Positions 2,556-8,788 of a DNA stretch of 12,479 nt are shown piece after piece. The notes under the pieces are model-generated. The model was not told the DNA's origin and ran no database searches. It worked only from the letters and a program-made list of their open reading frames with translations. The stretch is taken from IMG/VR virus record IMGVR_UViG_3300034160_000140; one strand, 5' to 3'. Origin of the DNA: a virus (lineage: Duplodnaviria; Heunggongvirae; Uroviricota; Caudoviricetes). Position 1 is the stretch's first letter, and the number at the start of each line of letters is the position of its first letter. The translations under genes and the position numbers were made by a program.

Positions 2556-3200
2556 ATGGCTCTTGCTCCCGCAGAAATCAACATCAAAAATCACATCATC
2601 CAATTTCCTGACTTGTTTCAAAGTCGTTTTTCGGTGTTGAAATTTGTATTGTTGAGCGATCCAGAATCGTGCTGGGCACAAGATGGCATTATTTACTCTC
2701 GGCATATTTCGACCCAAGATGTTACAAATCCAAAACTGAACACCAGTCACCTACCAGATGTTCCAGCAGAATTGGCAGATCTTTGTGCCTCTCATATTAC
2801 TCCAATGCAAATTAATCGTGAAATTGAATTGGCGAAGTATTTGGTGATTGAAAAGCATTTGGACACCATCGTTAAGGTTGAGATGCCCAACGAGAAGGCT
2901 ATGTCTGCCGCTGATGTTCGTCAAATTAATGATTACTCGTTGATCTTTCAAGTGCCTGATAATGTGGAAGCCAGTTGGCGTGTAGCGGTTCGTGAAGTCT
3001 TGCAAGCAGCTATTATTGCTACCAAGCAGGAATATTGCAATCATCGCTGTGATGGATCTCACGCTGACCACTGGGTCTATCCCTTTGCGTTTAAAACCTA
3101 CCATAAACTGTTGGGTGAACAGAAACGCTTTATGCCTAAATTAAACATTTCACCAGCCACAGCAGAAAAACTTAAACAACTTCGTGGTTTGTTAGGTTAA
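2556..3200 (+). CDS. Hypothetical protein (214 aa)
   Basis: GAGAGG SD before ATG 2556; the track start TTG 2517 lies upstream of the -10 box and is rejected. Confidence 0.85.
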   Translation: MALAPAEINIKNHIIQFPDLFQSRFSVLKFVLLSDPESCWAQDGIIYSRHISTQDVTNPKLNTSHLPDVPAELADLCASHITPMQINREIELAKYLVIEKHLDTIVKVEMPNEKAMSAADVRQINDYSLIFQVPDNVEASWRVAVREVLQAAIIATKQEYCNHRCDGSHADHWVYPFAFKTYHKLLGEQKRFMPKLNISPATAEKLKQLRGLLG

Positions 3201-3224
3201 ATGTAGCTATCCACAATAAATAGC

Positions 3225-3253
3225 TTGTTCAAAAAAAAGGTTTATTGTATAAT
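3225..3253 (+). promoter_or_regulatory. sigma70-type promoter
   Basis: TTGTTC - 17 bp - TATAAT (3248-3253). Confidence 0.75.
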
Positions 3254-3283
3254 GGCTACACACAAACCGATGAGGCAACAACC

Positions 3284-3571
3284 ATGATTACGTCTTCTTA
3301 TCTCAAACGTCCAGTCGTGATAATGAAGGTTCGTGCAGCCGTTGTGGAAGCCACAAAAGCGGCTGTTGATAGCGATGGGCATGGTCGAGCCTATATCACC
3401 GATTATGAAGACAATAACATCATGCGGTTGGATGTCTTTGTGCCGGGAAATCATGATTTATTCCCTGCTGGTGGTGTGATTGTCTACGGTGAAGGATCTA
3501 AGCAGATTACCAGTTTGGTCGAAGATTCCATTGGCAAACGATTCAGTGAGTTGTTGAACTTTTCCGTTTAA
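3284..3571 (+). CDS. Hypothetical protein (95 aa)
   Basis: GAGG SD before ATG 3284; terminator follows. Confidence 0.8.
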   Translation: MITSSYLKRPVVIMKVRAAVVEATKAAVDSDGHGRAYITDYEDNNIMRLDVFVPGNHDLFPAGGVIVYGEGSKQITSLVEDSIGKRFSELLNFSV

Positions 3572-3591
3572 TTAATTTCAACGTATTAACT

Positions 3592-3618
3592 AAAAAGAGC
3601 CTTGATGGCTCTTTTTTT
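3592..3618 (+). terminator. Intrinsic terminator (potentially bidirectional); copy 1 of a 24-bp repeat
   Basis: AAAAAGAGCC-TTGAT-GGCTCTTTTT; 3594-3617 identical to 4890-4913. Confidence 0.9.
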
Positions 3619-3629
3619 GTTTGCCATTA

Positions 3630-3660
3630 TATTTGATTTAATAACATTATCTGTTATAGT
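3630..3660 (+). promoter_or_regulatory. Promoter of pilin-like paralogue 1
   Basis: TATTTGATTTA-N12-GTTATAGT; TTGATT - 16 bp - TATAGT, TG at 3652-3653. Confidence 0.6.
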
Positions 3661-3687
3661 TGCTATGAATATAATATTGAGTAATCT

Positions 3688-4278
3688 ATGATTTTAAATA
3701 AGACTAAACAAACAGGCACTATTGGATTTGATGTAATAATGGTAATCGGCATTATGTTGTTGATTATTGCTGTTACATTGACACTTTATGGATCTGCCAG
3801 AGATAAAAGAAATGAGCAAGAAGTTAATTATTTAGGGTTGCTCTATCATTTAAGTTTTTCTAGTGGGAATGGATTAATTGTTTATAATGAAAAAGAAGTG
3901 TCGGACATTCAAAAAACTGTTATTAAATCATTAGATTGCACCAAAAATTATTGTACTCCAATACAAACGGCTCTTTCAATTGGATCTTTTATTTCCATTA
4001 ATTACACTAATGGTGTTGCACATGATATTAAAATTTATTCAACTAATGTAAGTTCTATTTTCTTCAAGAATAACAAAAGCTCTTATTTTTATAGTGAGAA
4101 ATTTCAGCTTGAAAAAACCACACTTGATGAACACCCTGATTATGCCTATCCATTAAGTATCCAGCCAAAGTTAACTCATGAATATTACTTAGCCACTGAT
4201 CTAACCAATCCAGTAAGTGAAGATGTATGTATTCCATCTGGTTTGGATTGTTATGATGTTTTACATTATAGGCTTTAA
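3688..4278 (+). CDS. Type IV pilin-like membrane protein, paralogue 1
   Basis: KQTG|TIGFD then 20 hydrophobic residues (prepilin-like, Asp at +5); aligns with 4999 and 7072 proteins including two Cys pairs (LDCTKNYC; VCIPSGLDCYDVL). Confidence 0.6.
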   Translation: MILNKTKQTGTIGFDVIMVIGIMLLIIAVTLTLYGSARDKRNEQEVNYLGLLYHLSFSSGNGLIVYNEKEVSDIQKTVIKSLDCTKNYCTPIQTALSIGSFISINYTNGVAHDIKIYSTNVSSIFFKNNKSSYFYSEKFQLEKTTLDEHPDYAYPLSIQPKLTHEYYLATDLTNPVSEDVCIPSGLDCYDVLHYRL

Positions 4279-4283
4279 AAAAA

Positions 4284-4312
4284 TTGAAAATATAGTTTTT
4301 TCTTGCTATAAT
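4284..4312 (+). promoter_or_regulatory. sigma70-type promoter, extended -10
   Basis: TTGAAA - 17 bp - TATAAT (4307-4312), TG at 4304-4305. Confidence 0.85.
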
Positions 4313-4358
4313 CTTTGAGTTGTTTATCGACAATGTTAAGCCATTATGAGGATCATTA

Positions 4359-4592
4359 ATGCGAATTATTCGTATGGGATATTGCAAGAAAATGCGATTT
4401 GCTTACATTCAGGCTAATTTTTTGGAAAGAGTCTTCATCGACCTAAAAATCAAAAAACGTACTTCTGGTGTGTTCCGCACTCAATCTCTTGGGGCATGGG
4501 CAAATAAAGCACAATACCTACTTGTTCCACGATCAACCAAAGGTCATGGTCTTTTTTCAGATAAGGAAAAAGCTGAGTATTATCGTAATTAA
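4359..4592 (+). CDS. Small basic hypothetical protein
   Basis: GAGGA SD at 4348-4352; own promoter; Lys/Arg-rich 77 aa. Confidence 0.7.
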   Translation: MRIIRMGYCKKMRFAYIQANFLERVFIDLKIKKRTSGVFRTQSLGAWANKAQYLLVPRSTKGHGLFSDKEKAEYYRN

Positions 4593-4595
4593 TAT

Positions 4596-4624
4596 TTGCT
4601 AAAAGAAATCGTTTTTGTTATAAT
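4596..4624 (+). promoter_or_regulatory. sigma70-type promoter, extended -10
   Basis: TTGCTA - 17 bp - TATAAT (4619-4624), TG at 4616-4617. Confidence 0.8.
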
Positions 4625-4653
4625 TAAATCTCAATTCAAAGAGGATTTTCATT

Positions 4654-4863
4654 ATGAGCATTCATCCCATCGTTAAAGATTTTCTCGCACAGCCTCTGCC
4701 CGATGATGCCTACAAAGCAGCTTCATTGGATGAACACAAGATGCCTTCTCGGGCTTCGTTTGAACGAGTCAATCGCCTGCTGGCTAGCTCGACGCCAGCT
4801 CAAATAGAAAAAGCCCGTAATGCCGCTCACCAGTATCTGTTTGGTAAATCGCCTAAACAGTGA
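4654..4863 (+). CDS. Small hypothetical protein
   Basis: GAGGA SD; 69 aa; promoter upstream, terminator downstream. Confidence 0.8.
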   Translation: MSIHPIVKDFLAQPLPDDAYKAASLDEHKMPSRASFERVNRLLASSTPAQIEKARNAAHQYLFGKSPKQ

Positions 4864-4889
4864 AGTGCTGAAAAAGTCCACTTACAATT

Positions 4890-4913
4890 AAAGAGCCTTG
4901 ATGGCTCTTTTTT
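4890..4913 (+). terminator. Intrinsic terminator; copy 2 of the 24-bp repeat
   Basis: AAAGAGCC-TTGAT-GGCTCTTTTTT. Confidence 0.9.
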
Positions 4914-4937
4914 ATTGCTTAAATTCAATACATTTCG

Positions 4938-4968
4938 TATTTGATTTATCAATGATATTCGTTATATT
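4938..4968 (+). promoter_or_regulatory. Promoter of pilin-like paralogue 2
   Basis: TATTTGATTTA-N12-GTTATATT, same geometry as 3630-3660. Confidence 0.6.
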
Positions 4969-4998
4969 TTATTACGTCCGTAATATTTGGAGGGGCTT

Positions 4999-5613
4999 AT
5001 GAGTGCTAATAAAATCATTATTATAAAAAGCGAATTTATAATAATTACATCTATTTTAGTTATGATTATTATCTTGTCTTTTTGTACTTTCTATGAGTAT
5101 AAGCGAAAAACAGTTGTGGAGAATGTAAATTATTTAGCGTTCATCTATCATTTAGGCTTATCTAATAATACTGATGGCGTATATATCATTAACTATGATC
5201 AAGCATTAAACATTCAAAAAGATGTCATTAAAAATCTAAATTGTTCAAGAGATAAAGACTACTGTTTTACATTTGATGATAAATTGGTTTCAGGTGCTTT
5301 TATTGAAATCAGTTACATTAATAATAAAGTTGATTATCTTAAAATATATTCTAAAAAGATTGGTTTTATTTTTAATAACAATGTCGCAATGGAACCTTAT
5401 TCAAAAGGATTATTTCCGCCTGAGTCGATTACGCAAAGTGAAAGCTTTCGCGTTGGAAGACCTAACACTTTGGTTATTGCTGATATGATGAACCATGTGA
5501 AGCATGAATATTACAATGAATACAATTTGGGCAAACGGATTACAGAAGAAGAGTGTATGCTGGCTAAAAATCAGTGTTTTGATGTTCTTTTTTACGAAAA
5601 AAACCCTGCATGA
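4999..5613 (+). CDS. Pilin-like family membrane protein, paralogue 2 (no recognisable prepilin cleavage site)
   Basis: GGAGG at 4989-4993 gives ATG 4999; N-terminal TM; VNYLAFIYHL..IQKDVIKNLNC..YC..GAFIEISY..LKIYS aligns with VNYLGLLYHL..IQKTVIKSLDC..YC..GSFISINY..IKIYS of 3688. Confidence 0.65.
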   Translation: MSANKIIIIKSEFIIITSILVMIIILSFCTFYEYKRKTVVENVNYLAFIYHLGLSNNTDGVYIINYDQALNIQKDVIKNLNCSRDKDYCFTFDDKLVSGAFIEISYINNKVDYLKIYSKKIGFIFNNNVAMEPYSKGLFPPESITQSESFRVGRPNTLVIADMMNHVKHEYYNEYNLGKRITEEECMLAKNQCFDVLFYEKNPA

Positions 5614-5627
5614 CACTCATGAAGACG

Positions 5628-5656
5628 TTGACGAAAAAAGTCTTTTTTGCTATAAT
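5628..5656 (+). promoter_or_regulatory. Near-consensus sigma70 promoter, extended -10
   Basis: TTGACG - 17 bp - TATAAT (5651-5656), TG at 5648-5649. Confidence 0.9.
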
Positions 5657-5686
5657 ACATTCACTAAAAACCAATAGAGATCCAAC

Positions 5687-6103
5687 ATGACTGCGATTAT
5701 CGTTAGCGACAAAATCAAAGTTCCAGAAGGGCAAGAAAACAATCCTTGCGTGGGTTGTGGTGCTTGCTGTGCCTACTTTCGTGCATCCTTTCACTGGATG
5801 GAATGCGAATCGGCTGGCGGCACCGTCCCTGATGACACCGTTGTTCAGGTCAGTCCACACCATGTCGCCATGAAGGGTACTGATAGCTCCACATCCCCTT
5901 ACTGCGTTAATCTGACTGGAACCATCGGTGTCGATGCGTTTTGCGGTGGTTACGCCACTCGTTCTTCTACTTGCCGTGATGGTTTTCCAGCTTCCTATGA
6001 AGATGGTGAAAAGAATGAGCGGTGTGATAAGGCTCGGGCAAAACACGGCCTTCGTGAGTTGACACCAGAAGATTGGGCTTGGAAAAATGCAATCACGGCT
6101 TAA
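5687..6103 (+). CDS. ykgJ: YkgJ family cysteine-cluster (zinc/iron-chelating, CxxCxxCC) protein
   Basis: NPCVGCGACCAYFRASFHW.E...AGGTVP...RSSTCR...NERCDKARAKHGL matches the E. coli YkgJ pattern. Confidence 0.9.
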   Translation: MTAIIVSDKIKVPEGQENNPCVGCGACCAYFRASFHWMECESAGGTVPDDTVVQVSPHHVAMKGTDSSTSPYCVNLTGTIGVDAFCGGYATRSSTCRDGFPASYEDGEKNERCDKARAKHGLRELTPEDWAWKNAITA

Positions 6104-6121
6104 TAATTTCAAATAAATCAT

Positions 6122-6141
6122 GGGGCTTCGGCCCCTTTTTT
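6122..6141 (+). terminator. Intrinsic terminator
   Basis: GGGGC-TTCG-GCCCC plus TTTTTT. Confidence 0.9.
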
Positions 6142-6142
6142 G

Positions 6143-6171
6143 TTGTTTTTGATTGGTTACAGTGGTATAAT
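6143..6171 (+). promoter_or_regulatory. sigma70-type promoter, extended -10
   Basis: TTGTTT - 17 bp - TATAAT (6166-6171), TG at 6163-6164. Confidence 0.8.
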
Positions 6172-6197
6172 GAGTTATCAAAACGAGGATAAGCCCG

Positions 6198-6566
6198 ATG
6201 AAAACTTTGAATGCCGAAACCGTCAAAATCCAGTTGAACGCTTGTGGTGTTAAGGTTAATGATATTTCGAGTGATTTGAAGAAAATCGTTGAAGCCACCG
6301 TTTCATCCAGCCAAGAATCAGCATTCATTGAAGCGAAGGTTAATGCCATTCGACTCGATTTGGCAGCAAAAGACTCCGATTTTAACCCAAAAGACATTGT
6401 TTTTTCCTTCTCTCCATTGCCCCGTTCGGTGATCGTTTACAAAAATCAGCCGTTCATTGTCGATTGCTCTCACAAAAATGGATTGTTCTTGATTTCGATG
6501 TGTGGCGAAGAGTATGAAAGTGCTCCTGTTGCAGAATACCCAGTTATTGGCACAATTACCATTTAA
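6198..6566 (+). CDS. Hypothetical protein
   Basis: GAGGA SD; 122 aa. Confidence 0.85.
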   Translation: MKTLNAETVKIQLNACGVKVNDISSDLKKIVEATVSSSQESAFIEAKVNAIRLDLAAKDSDFNPKDIVFSFSPLPRSVIVYKNQPFIVDCSHKNGLFLISMCGEEYESAPVAEYPVIGTITI

Positions 6567-6575
6567 GGAATTGAC

Positions 6576-6959
6576 ATGAACTACAATATTGAAAATTACG
6601 AAGATAAGCAAATGGCTACCGTCTCCAAGTGGTTTGTTGGCATTTTTGTGGTTATTGTTGTCGCTGTTTTTTATCAAGTAATTGTCAATGGTTATCAACC
6701 TACCGGAAAAAAATCGGAATTGATGAGCATAGAAGCCAATATTATTACCAGCGAACAGACTAGTAGTTTTCTTGTTCGTATTTATGACAAACAGATTGAA
6801 GGTGGTTTTCGTTGCCGGTCTGAACCGATTAAAAAACGAGCGAAACTCTTTTATCGTATGGCAGAAGTTAAAACAGTCACCGGCAAGTTGAAAATTGTCC
6901 CTGTTTTTGATGATGTATTGAGTTGCAAAAGCATTATGTCAGATGTTCAAGTTTCATAA
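6576..6959 (+). CDS. Single-pass membrane hypothetical protein
   Basis: AAGGA SD; WFVGIFVVIVVAVFY TM then beta-rich domain with two Cys. Confidence 0.8.
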   Translation: MNYNIENYEDKQMATVSKWFVGIFVVIVVAVFYQVIVNGYQPTGKKSELMSIEANIITSEQTSSFLVRIYDKQIEGGFRCRSEPIKKRAKLFYRMAEVKTVTGKLKIVPVFDDVLSCKSIMSDVQVS

Positions 6960-6970
6960 ATAGGTATGTT

Positions 6971-6998
6971 AAAAAAGCCTCCTTCGTGGAGGTTTTTT
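6971..6998 (+). terminator. Intrinsic terminator (potentially bidirectional)
   Basis: AAAAAAGCCTCC-TTCGT-GGAGGTTTTTT. Confidence 0.9.
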
Positions 6999-7028
6999 AT
7001 TTGCTTTTTTTATATTATTTGTTATTAT
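6998..7028 (+). promoter_or_regulatory. Promoter of pilin-like paralogue 3
   Basis: TATTTGCTTTT-N12-GTTATTAT; TTGCTT - 16 bp - TATTAT, TG at 7020-7021. Confidence 0.6.
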
Positions 7029-7071
7029 TTTTAATGAAGTTAGAACTTCATAATAACTATAAGGTATAGCG

Positions 7072-7746
7072 ATGAATACAAAAAAAATAAATAAGATGTC
7101 TGGTGGTGTTTCTTTGCTTGAACCACTTATGGTGATTGCTCTCTTTGCAATGATGATTATTATGGCAATAATTTACTACAGTGCTTCAACTAAAAGGTTT
7201 AATCCAGATTTTATGGATATTGTAAGTTTTGCTAATAATTTAAACTCGTTACAATCAGATAAAGAAGTCATTACTTTAAAGTATAATGAAATAACGCCTT
7301 TTCAAAAAGATTTGTTTAGTAAAATAGATTGTGTTAATTCCATATGTAAGCCTATTGACTTACAAAAATATCCGCCTAACACTTATTTAAGAATTTATTA
7401 TAAAGATTCCAAGTTTGATTCTTTTTATCTGTACACAAAAAACAACAGTTCTATTTTTAACTTTAATACAACAGTTTATAATGATTGGGTTTCAAACATC
7501 TCTTTTGATCGATTTAAAGAAGAAGAAATTACTTTGATTAAACGAGAGAAAAAGAGATACCCAGATATGAATCCTTTTATTACTTATTTATCAAATACAT
7601 TTGATAATGTCTCTATTTATAATATCTCTGATAATGATCAATCTGTTGTTAAAGATGATAATTGTCCAGAAGCAAACTGCACCAGTGTGTTAGCGTATAA
7701 AAACAATCCAATCGTACAACTTGCAGACAACAAAAAAGCCCTTTGA
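7072..7746 (+). CDS. Type IV pilin-like protein with canonical class III (prepilin) signal, paralogue 3
   Basis: Basic leader MNTKKINKMSGG|VSLLE with Glu at +5, then hydrophobic helix; IDCVNSIC and NCPEANCTSVL Cys pairs align with paralogues. Confidence 0.7.
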   Translation: MNTKKINKMSGGVSLLEPLMVIALFAMMIIMAIIYYSASTKRFNPDFMDIVSFANNLNSLQSDKEVITLKYNEITPFQKDLFSKIDCVNSICKPIDLQKYPPNTYLRIYYKDSKFDSFYLYTKNNSSIFNFNTTVYNDWVSNISFDRFKEEEITLIKREKKRYPDMNPFITYLSNTFDNVSIYNISDNDQSVVKDDNCPEANCTSVLAYKNNPIVQLADNKKAL

Positions 7747-7754
7747 GGGCTTTT
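7734..7754. terminator. Bidirectional terminator between convergent genes, overlapping the stop of 7072-7746
   Basis: AAAAGCCCT-TTG-AGGGCTTTT. Confidence 0.8.
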
Positions 7755-7775
7755 ATTCATTCATTTCCGAAGCGA

Positions 7776-8387
7776 TCAAAGCTTCCCGGTATATTTCAAC
7801 AACAACGTGCTCCTAATCCCCAGAATAGCCTCATTACAAGCAATCTGACCTATTTCAATCATGTGCATGGCTTCTTCACTGGTAAACACACCAACTTCGA
7901 TATCTTCGTCATCAATCCCATAGGCTTTTGACTGGTCGATGTCACTGGCACTGAACGCACACAGAAAGTGGTGATGTTTTTCACTCGATGAGCCAGCACT
8001 GGTATACCCGGAGCCTAGATCGATCAAATTGCTTTCGTTGACAATCACACCCGCTTCTTCGTTGGCTTCTTTGGCTGCAGTTTGTCGAGGTGTTTCTCTG
8101 ATATCATTCTTGATGTCAATATGACCAGCTACCACACTCCAGAGATATGGGTTGGTATCATATTCGTTCACAGCAGCACCCGGCCTGAACTGACGGATTA
8201 ACAGGAATGAATCTTTATCCTTATCATACAGCGTTAGGCAGACAGCATCGGCCTTTTTGACGATCAGGAAATTCAACTCACCACGATCACCTTTGAACTT
8301 TTCAAATTCAAAATGGCGAAATCCCACTTGCATGAAGGGATAATTGATTTCAATCTTTTCGTTCAGTAATTTATAGGGTCTGTTCAT
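7776..8387 (-). CDS. Nudix hydrolase, NudF/NudK-like (ADP-ribose / NDP-sugar pyrophosphatase family)
   Basis: LLIRQFR, Nudix box AG..ETPRQTAAKEANEEAGV, SAGSSSE, IDDEDIEV; GGAG SD 6 nt before ATG at 8387. Confidence 0.85.
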   Translation of the reverse strand: MNRPYKLLNEKIEINYPFMQVGFRHFEFEKFKGDRGELNFLIVKKADAVCLTLYDKDKDSFLLIRQFRPGAAVNEYDTNPYLWSVVAGHIDIKNDIRETPRQTAAKEANEEAGVIVNESNLIDLGSGYTSAGSSSEKHHHFLCAFSASDIDQSKAYGIDDEDIEVGVFTSEEAMHMIEIGQIACNEAILGIRSTLLLKYTGKL

Positions 8388-8469
8388 GTTCGTCTCCATT
8401 TCTTGCAATATTAACACAATATTAGTCGAAAATACATGAGTTATTTTAGTTATTTTACAAAAAAAATGT

Positions 8470-8498
8470 TTGAATGACGGCCTTGTTTTTGATAAAAT
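8470..8498 (+). promoter_or_regulatory. sigma70-type promoter, extended -10
   Basis: TTGAAT - 17 bp - TAAAAT (8493-8498), TG at 8490-8491. Confidence 0.8.
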
Positions 8499-8527
8499 AC
8501 ACACACATTCAAAGAACGAGGCACATC

Positions 8528-8788
8528 ATGTCATTTTCCAAAGAATACACCGAAGCTGAATTGAAATGGGCTGACCAGTACAAAGGTGCTGTCATCCAAA
8601 ACATCAAATACAGTGCTCCCAAGCACGCCCCGACCAATTTTCACTACTATGCCGAAATTCGTTTGGCAAATGGCGAACTGATGTTGGCTGCAACCTTGGA
8701 TATGTGTGTTGAACGTCTTCAAGTTGTGGCTGAATGCCTCGCTTACTGGAAACACTTTTCGGAAGTGATTGATATTATCACTCCATAA
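8528..8788 (+). CDS. Hypothetical protein (86 aa)
   Basis: GAGG SD before ATG 8528; terminator follows. Confidence 0.8.
   Translation: MSFSKEYTEAELKWADQYKGAVIQNIKYSAPKHAPTNFHYYAEIRLANGELMLAATLDMCVERLQVVAECLAYWKHFSEVIDIITP

Follow-up and report, generated by a model that had tools for sequence, protein, structure and literature searches.

The DNA considered here, which we refer to as the window, is a stretch of 12,479 nucleotides (nt) classified with the Caudoviricetes (IMG/VR virus record IMGVR_UViG_3300034160_000140) that forms part of a 1.92-Mb contig. An original prediction, made from the letters alone, had pointed to three AT-rich, paralogous genes for type IV pilin-like proteins within it, dispersed as solo units and standing apart from any pilus machinery. 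We designate these genes A, B, and C, for the open reading frames (ORFs) 3688-4278, 4999-5613, and 7072-7746, respectively, and speak of them together as the trio.

Three paralogous genes and their family

The genes and the main features of their products are as follows.

3688-4278, plus strand: paralogue A, 196 amino acids (aa); basic leader, G10, TIGFD, hydrophobic helix, predicted exported alpha/beta domain, Cys84/89 and Cys181/188
4999-5613, plus strand: paralogue B, 204 aa; domain and four Cys as in A; IIKSEF, with Gly absent ahead of the hydrophobic helix
7072-7746, plus strand: paralogue C, 224 aa; leader MNTKKINKMSGG, VSLLE, hydrophobic helix, predicted exported domain, Cys87/92 and Cys198/203

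The three ORFs were found where they had been placed, and they align lengthwise. By BLASTP, A and B are the closest pair (expect value [E], 6e-25; 32% identity across 184 aa), followed by A and C (E, 8e-11) and by B and C (E, 6e-6), and the homology extends over the full length of the proteins. The motifs quoted beforehand are all present, namely QK, the C-x4/6-C pair, I.Y, (I/L)Y(S/T), the C-terminal C-x4/6-C, and VL.Y, and the N-terminal transmembrane (TM) segment proposed for each protein was confirmed as one hydrophobic segment apiece. From the N terminus on, each protein consists of a basic leader, a hydrophobic helix, and an exported alpha/beta domain of about 150 residues in which two Cys pairs are conserved. 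The four Cys, Q75, Y106, Y117, and VL.Y are invariant or nearly so among 30 to 41 family members. Together with the membrane topology, the four conserved Cys argue for an exported domain in the oxidizing periplasm.

The AT-richness of the trio relative to its neighbors also held up. The GC content of the three genes is 0.28 to 0.30, against 0.36 to 0.50 for most of the neighboring genes, and the GC content at third codon positions (GC3) is 0.21 to 0.26, where most neighbors have about 0.4. The third position is hit hardest, which indicates that the AT-richness is not solely an amino acid effect. For gene B, an alternative start at a TTG codon at position 4987 was rejected, because the ATG at 4999 is preceded by a fitting Shine-Dalgarno sequence, GGAGGGG.

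No Pfam, NCBIfam, or PHROG family matched A, B, or C at a meaningful level. A word-indexed search of 5.8 billion proteins yielded 28 relatives, and an exhaustive profile search, run against 1.84 billion cluster representatives, yielded only 16. All of the relatives come from metagenomes, and they sort into three groups of orthologues, corresponding to A, B, and C. The trio genes are real, conserved, and under selection, and they belong to a tiny family for which the searched libraries have no entry.

Likeness to type IV pilins

A class III pilin signal had been proposed for the trio, and this was found in two of its three members. In C, KMSGG is followed by VSLLE and then by about 20 hydrophobic residues, placing Glu at +5 when counted from the second Gly, which makes a good class III signal. 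In A, KQTG is followed by TIGFD, with Asp at +5. Both proteins have Gly at −1, an acidic residue at +5, and the hydrophobic helix. The signal is missing from B, which has no Gly. Family-wide, a near-invariant Gly follows the Lys/Arg-rich leader, the exceptions being group B and a 63-aa member, P0047, which has Ala. Asp or Glu stands at +5 in 13 of 13 A-like and distant members, again followed by about 20 hydrophobic residues. At the most distant locus (L006), all three paralogues carry canonical signals, with Gly preceding FLSID, VSLLE, and FCIID, respectively, which indicates that the ancestral N terminus was canonical and that the loss in group B is derived. Six other proteins of the window with an N-terminal TM segment were read in the same way, and none combines a Gly with an acidic residue at these positions. 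Judging from its N terminus, B is probably uncleaved and membrane anchored.

In these respects, the family resembles the pilin and pseudopilin superfamily (PF07963 and TIGR02532), with its basic leader, Gly at −1, acidic residue at +5, and stretch of some 20 hydrophobic residues. It differs from that superfamily in having T, V, F, or I at +1, in that Asp is commoner than Glu at +5, in having one group without the motif, and in missing the curated thresholds.

Sequence searches returned pilins first. A profile of the N-terminal 62 residues, compared with all Protein Data Bank (PDB) sequences, gave 14 matches at an E of ≤10, and the top three were type IV pilins: a geopilin (E, 0.01), PilA (E, 0.032), and a second geopilin entry (E, 0.15). 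Further matches included TcpA, the narrow-pilus protein PilA5, and the CFA/III pilin. The alignments with the two geopilin entries and PilA place the Gly at −1 and the acidic residue at +5 in register. The full-length family profile gave a like result against solved pilins. When 41 family members were scanned singly, XpsH, ComGD, GspH, and TIGR02532 appeared below threshold with one to three members each. Among protein language-model neighbors of A and C were the N_methyl, PilS/Bundlin, and shufflon-PilV clusters.

Predicted structures were then compared with known ones. The AlphaFold2 model of full-length A had a mean predicted local distance difference test score (pLDDT) of 67, and a model of C residues 30 to 224, with the hydrophobic helix omitted, had a pLDDT of 76.6 and a predicted template modeling score (pTM) of 0.76. 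Both models were searched against 48,161 PDB representatives. For A, the top two were TcpB (Z, 4.4; 127 residues) and CofB (Z, 4.2; 129 residues), with the pilin domain aligned. For C, the same two proteins led, both at a Z of 4.6 (143 and 128 residues, respectively), the next row having a Z of 3.5. Lower rows of this search included TcpA, the CFA/III pilus, and a Thermus competence pilin. With Foldseek, TcpB was likewise first in the PDB for the C model. In the clustered AlphaFold database, the top match to the helix-less C was a protein annotated as "prepilin-type N-terminal cleavage/methylation" (E, 4.4e-4; probability, 1.00; template modeling score, 0.44), two more prepilin-type proteins fell within the top ten, and prepilin-type proteins also led the list for the A model. 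Searches of the viral BFVD and of the ESM Atlas gave no meaningful match. Foldseek rows for GNAT and acyl-homoserine lactone (AHL) synthase proteins were taken as noise, with root mean square deviations of 14 to 19 Å. Prediction of a complex of the soluble parts of A, B, and C scored 0.00, which is evidence neither way.

On the strength of these models, the trio appears to have its nearest structural counterpart in domain 1 of two type IVb minor pilins, namely TcpB, from the toxin-coregulated pilus (TCP) of Vibrio cholerae, and CofB, of the CFA/III pilus of enterotoxigenic Escherichia coli (ETEC), minus their C-terminal tip domains. Domain 1 of TcpB comprises residues 1 to 229 and is an alpha/beta-roll pilin domain, in which the long alpha/beta loop is held by a Cys85-Cys107 disulfide that CofB shares (PMC9565799). 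It was the best structural match, over 127 to 143 residues of the pilin domain for the two proteins, and the likeness extends to the class III-type N terminus. In the models, the first Cys pair of the trio (84/89 in A and 87/92 in C) comes after the second helix, at the expected place of the alpha/beta loop, and so stands approximately where the TcpB disulfide is found. The acidic residue at +5 has been studied in TcpB, where Glu5 is dispensable for pilus priming and is required for entering the growing pilus and triggering retraction, and where a Glu5Asp variant is nearly wild type (PMC5207764).

There are also clear differences. Sequence homology to TcpB and CofB is not detectable, and Z is just 4.2 to 4.6. 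The trio proteins end after the pilin-like domain (196 to 224 aa), and the alignments span only TcpB residues 34 to 228 and CofB residues 27 to 266. Domains 2 and 3, which in TcpB, CofB, and LngB form the trimer at the pilus tip and in TcpB and CofB bind TcpF or CofJ, are lacking. The leader is short, three paralogues take the place of one gene, the residue at +5 in A is Asp and not Glu, and a cleavage site is missing from B. Finally, the trio lies outside any pilus operon, with no pilus gene either in the window or, at related loci, within a distance of 10 kb.

A number of observations weigh against a pilin origin. PF07963 was the check that the original prediction had proposed, and its curated threshold was missed: the best E was 0.017, with 2 of 41 members giving a match and none of A, B, or C among them. 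TIGR02532 was found in one member at an E of 0.56. The exhaustive profile search linked no canonical pilin to the family among 1.84 billion proteins. The language-model neighbors scored 0.80 to 0.86, and by the guidance of that tool a score below 0.9 counts as a lead only. Besides the missing Gly ahead of the helix in B, its Glu12 is Lys in some orthologues, and in about half of group C, an Asp follows the invariant Gly so that the Glu falls at +6. Helix alpha-1 is broken in the prediction, where confidence is low at residues 31 to 47 of A, and the fold scores are all weak (Z below 5, template modeling scores of 0.28 to 0.44, and a Foldseek PDB E of 0.06). The comparison with pilin folds that had been called for is in this sense divided, since pilin domains came out on top for both the A and C models at scores that are low throughout. 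No T2SSE, T2SSF, Peptidase_A24, or Secretin domain was recorded for genes within 10 kb on either side in four related loci, a result that agrees with the earlier statement that pilus machinery is not found nearby.

The case for pilins rests on the agreement of weak scores across methods and across paralogues, and on that basis, we consider it likely that the trio is pilin derived. Class III signals as diverged as these escape PF07963 and TIGR02532, and it follows that pilin-like genes are undercounted in viral metagenome surveys.

Expression signals, synteny, and selection

A terminator scan and inspection of the upstream regions gave the following features.

3592-3616, plus strand: hairpin terminator upstream of A, its core identical to that of the hairpin upstream of B
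3630-3658, plus strand: promoter motif of A, TATTTGATTTA-N13-GTTATA (TTGATT, 16 nt, TATAGT)
4890-4910, plus strand: hairpin terminator upstream of B, core as at 3592-3616
4938-4966, plus strand: promoter motif of B (TTGATT, 16 nt, TATATT)
6972-6998, plus strand: hairpin terminator upstream of C
6998-7026, plus strand: promoter motif of C, TATTTGCTTTT-N13-GTTATT, kept in the related locus L009
7734-7754, minus strand: hairpin terminator between the converging C and NUDIX genes

The composite motif TATTTG(A/C)TTT(A/T)-N13-GTTAT(A/T) occurs three times in the window, each time upstream of a member of the trio, where 0 occurrences are expected by chance, although this uniqueness is partly circular in that the pattern was derived from the three sites themselves. 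A stronger point is that the motif is largely conserved upstream of orthologues. Its first element resembles the MotA box of phage T4; TTTGCTTTA is found exactly in L004. The neighboring genes use another promoter (TTGnnn, 17 nt, TGnTATAAT). These sequence signals suggest that the trio may form an expression class of its own.

Gene order is conserved in four to five related loci, running from a 214-aa gene through A, small genes, B, a CxxCxxCC gene, a 122-aa gene, a TM protein gene, and C to the NUDIX gene. Because this order is kept in diverged relatives, the trio is part of a conserved block and not a random scatter. The description of the genes as dispersed solo units among unrelated genes was for this reason overstated. 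What remains of it is that each gene has its own upstream terminator and promoter-like site; what does not is the implied lack of relation, as the genes belong to a syntenic block and have a common type of promoter. Moreover, A and B have no terminator of their own and may be cotranscribed with the small genes downstream of them.

The common terminator core and promoter upstream of A and B indicate that this pair arose by segmental duplication. At L004, a single A/B-type gene (positions 7918-8529) occupies the place that A, two small genes, and B take up in the window. It is about 45% identical to A and to B, and it retains the signal, with Gly followed by ASLID. The presence of this single gene suggests that the A/B duplication, terminator and promoter included, was lineage specific and that the cleavage site of B was lost afterwards. 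Apart from one 63-aa gene in L011 (positions 13072-13263), the family profile turned up no additional paralogue in approximately 90 kb of related loci. That gene encodes the N-terminal part only, with a basic leader, AIPFLE, and a hydrophobic helix, and its place is just upstream of C, with the shared promoter motif on one side and the C orthologue on the other.

The ratio of nonsynonymous to synonymous substitution rates (dN/dS) was estimated pairwise between the window and three relatives. It was 0.33 to 0.50 for A, 0.18 to 0.22 for B, and 0.28 to 0.49 for C, and 0.02 to 0.2 for most neighbors. The trio is under purifying but relaxed selection and evolves faster than its surroundings. Fast evolution is often seen in surface-exposed proteins. 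The CxxCxxCC gene (PF03692; 5687-6103), which lies between B and C, is the most conserved of the block, with 96 to 99% identity and a dN/dS of 0.03.

Possible action on the host pilus and occurrence of the family

The setting of the trio is phage-like: it lies in an accessory region of giant elements of this kind. About 25 short genes are found in the window, nearly all of them on the plus strand and mostly arranged as single-gene cassettes. A typical cassette has a TATAAT-type promoter and a ribosome-binding site as well as a GC-rich hairpin with a T-run behind it. This cassette organization and PHROG matches in neighboring genes make up the phage-like context. A role as recipient-range adhesins of a plasmid, which the original prediction had offered as one option, finds no support, the context being phage-like with no conjugation gene near. 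Roles as an i-spanin, holin, or antiholin were rejected as well, since the predicted fold is alpha/beta and not a coiled coil and there are no lysis genes among the neighbors.

The other option, that of decoy subunits acting in superinfection exclusion, is plausible by analogy and has a published precedent. FimU-like proteins of prophages take the place of the host's tip pilin and block phages that bind the tip; PilA-like phage genes, some of them cut to about 60 residues, are found in virulent phages; and both FimU-like and PilA-like phage proteins have been documented to enter the host pilus and to block other phages (PMC12952977). The trio resembles these proteins (P-FimU and P-PilA) in that pilin-like proteins are encoded by a phage-like element without pilus machinery, and the 63-aa form in L011 recalls the truncated P-PilA proteins of about 60 residues (PMC12952977). 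It differs in that P-FimU and P-PilA resemble host pilins in sequence, whereas the trio family matches no known pilin family.

The explanation that we favor overall, with a probability of roughly 0.45, is that A, B, and C are diverged type IV pilin-like paralogues that act as decoy, or "headless," minor pilins on the host pilus. Action through the host type IV machinery, taken as a claim in itself, we would put just short of even. In such a mechanism, A, B, and C would insert into the inner membrane, and A and C, as their signals suggest, would be cleaved by a prepilin peptidase, most likely that of the host. By analogy with TcpB and the phage FimU-like proteins, the cleaved A and C could then be taken up, as headless minor pilins, by the host's machinery for type IV filaments. 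Pili primed in this way might have an altered tip, or growing pili might stall and collapse. Either outcome could mask or remove a phage receptor, leading to superinfection exclusion, or could otherwise switch off pilus functions during infection. B would probably stay anchored in the membrane and act on the assembly platform or on A and C.

Other explanations account for part of the same observations. The proteins might be single-pass inner-membrane or periplasmic proteins in which the resemblance to pilins is vestigial or convergent and no filament is involved; they could then be injection blockers or envelope modifiers like Imm and Sp of T4, or receptors or anchors for exported proteins of the element. 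All of the pilin scores are below threshold, as this would have it, and a cleavage site is lacking in B, the most constrained of the three (dN/dS, 0.18 to 0.22), which means that one member or more works without cleavage. Other small membrane or secreted proteins also abound in the window, and the early-type cassettes of the genes are like those of phage exclusion genes. However, a plain signal anchor needs no conserved Gly and acidic residue at the start of the helix, and the two are not combined in any of the six other TM proteins read. Furthermore, sequence, fold, and embedding searches independently return pilins first. We regard a role without a filament as doubtful. It is unlikely, in our estimation, that the trio represents minor pilins of a filament, whether a pilus or a secretion pseudopilus, that is encoded elsewhere on the 0.7- to 1.9-Mb element and serves as its own fiber or export device. 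The pilin-like evidence would be the same as for decoy minor pilins, an element with contigs of up to 1.92 Mb has room for the machinery, and a conserved, coregulated threesome of paralogues resembles the sets of minor pilins that prime filaments. However, type IVb systems house the minor pilin in the machinery operon, and here no machinery was recorded within 10 kb at four loci; the trio instead lies among small accessory cassettes, and the family profile found no major-pilin candidate in the approximately 90 kb of related loci.

A further variant would make the trio a virus adaptor set, in which minor pilins consisting only of a TcpB/CofB-like domain 1 reprime the host pilus to display or export secreted proteins of the element. 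It parallels the role of TcpB for TcpF, and if it were true, the host pilus would become a secretion device of a giant phage-like element, but we consider it very improbable. As to whether the ORFs are chance frames in AT-rich spacer DNA, the low GC content and the lack of a database family would fit, and the likelihood is next to nil. Full-length orthologues exist at 44 to 97% identity in several genomes with dN/dS well below 1, the four Cys are conserved, each ORF has a promoter and a ribosome-binding site, and the fold models are confident (pTM of 0.76 for C); conservation refutes this reading.

A phage-like element that has pilin-like genes and no machinery is a phenomenon known in kind. 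What is new is an uncatalogued and very diverged sequence lineage, and the unusual conserved arrangement of three paralogues in giant elements. If the trio does act as decoy minor pilins, phage pilus components extend from small temperate phages of Pseudomonas and Xylella to giant uncultured elements with contigs of 0.7 to 1.9 Mb, and a pilin lineage that no domain library recognizes is added to those known. The trio, with two members carrying a cleavable signal, one without it, and a common promoter type, would then offer a compact system for studying the priming, capping, or stalling of pili by foreign pilins.

The family was encountered only on giant metagenomic contigs, whose lengths are 1.92 Mb, 1.85 Mb, 1.07 Mb, 835 kb, 773 kb, and 678 kb. 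With the window, protein A, the 214-aa neighbor, and the related loci as queries, nothing similar was found in phage, plasmid, IMG/VR, and GTDB collections, and the lineage was not identified in the literature on megabase-sized phage-like elements. DNA of the element is present in peat and wastewater metagenomes and in runs with coded organism names. In the latter (X3 to X11, labeled with organisms coded A, B, and C, and stemming from several studies), about 60 to 70% of the words sampled from window positions 3600 to 7800 were present. Given these organism-labeled runs, a close relative of the element may exist in some culture or enrichment.

Among the sequencing runs, none was listed as an RNA source of this DNA. 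Two wastewater runs labeled as RNA-Seq, one of them judged to be probably DNA, carry the neighbors of the trio, with only short pieces of at least 85% likeness over B. In these runs (X19 and X20; window positions 3000 to 8500), contigs of a relative span the GC-richer neighboring genes, and most of 3453-5620, from A to B, as well as C, is unaligned at a likeness of at least 85%. In X19, only short pieces cover the 69-aa gene (4654-4863) and B. These gaps fit faster divergence or replacement of the pilin-like genes.

Two other places in the window drew our attention. A gene on the minus strand (437-1138) encodes a 233-aa multipass membrane protein; its GC content is 0.27, making it AT-rich like the trio, and its dN/dS of 0.21 to 0.34 is above that of most neighbors and overlaps the range of the pilin-like genes. 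In composition, it thus joins the trio as a further envelope protein of one class. Positions 1257-1448 and 1465-1668 hold adjoining genes for proteins of 63 and 67 aa, which by eye look like paralogues of one another, each with an N-terminal TM helix followed by C-x8-C and F.WD.

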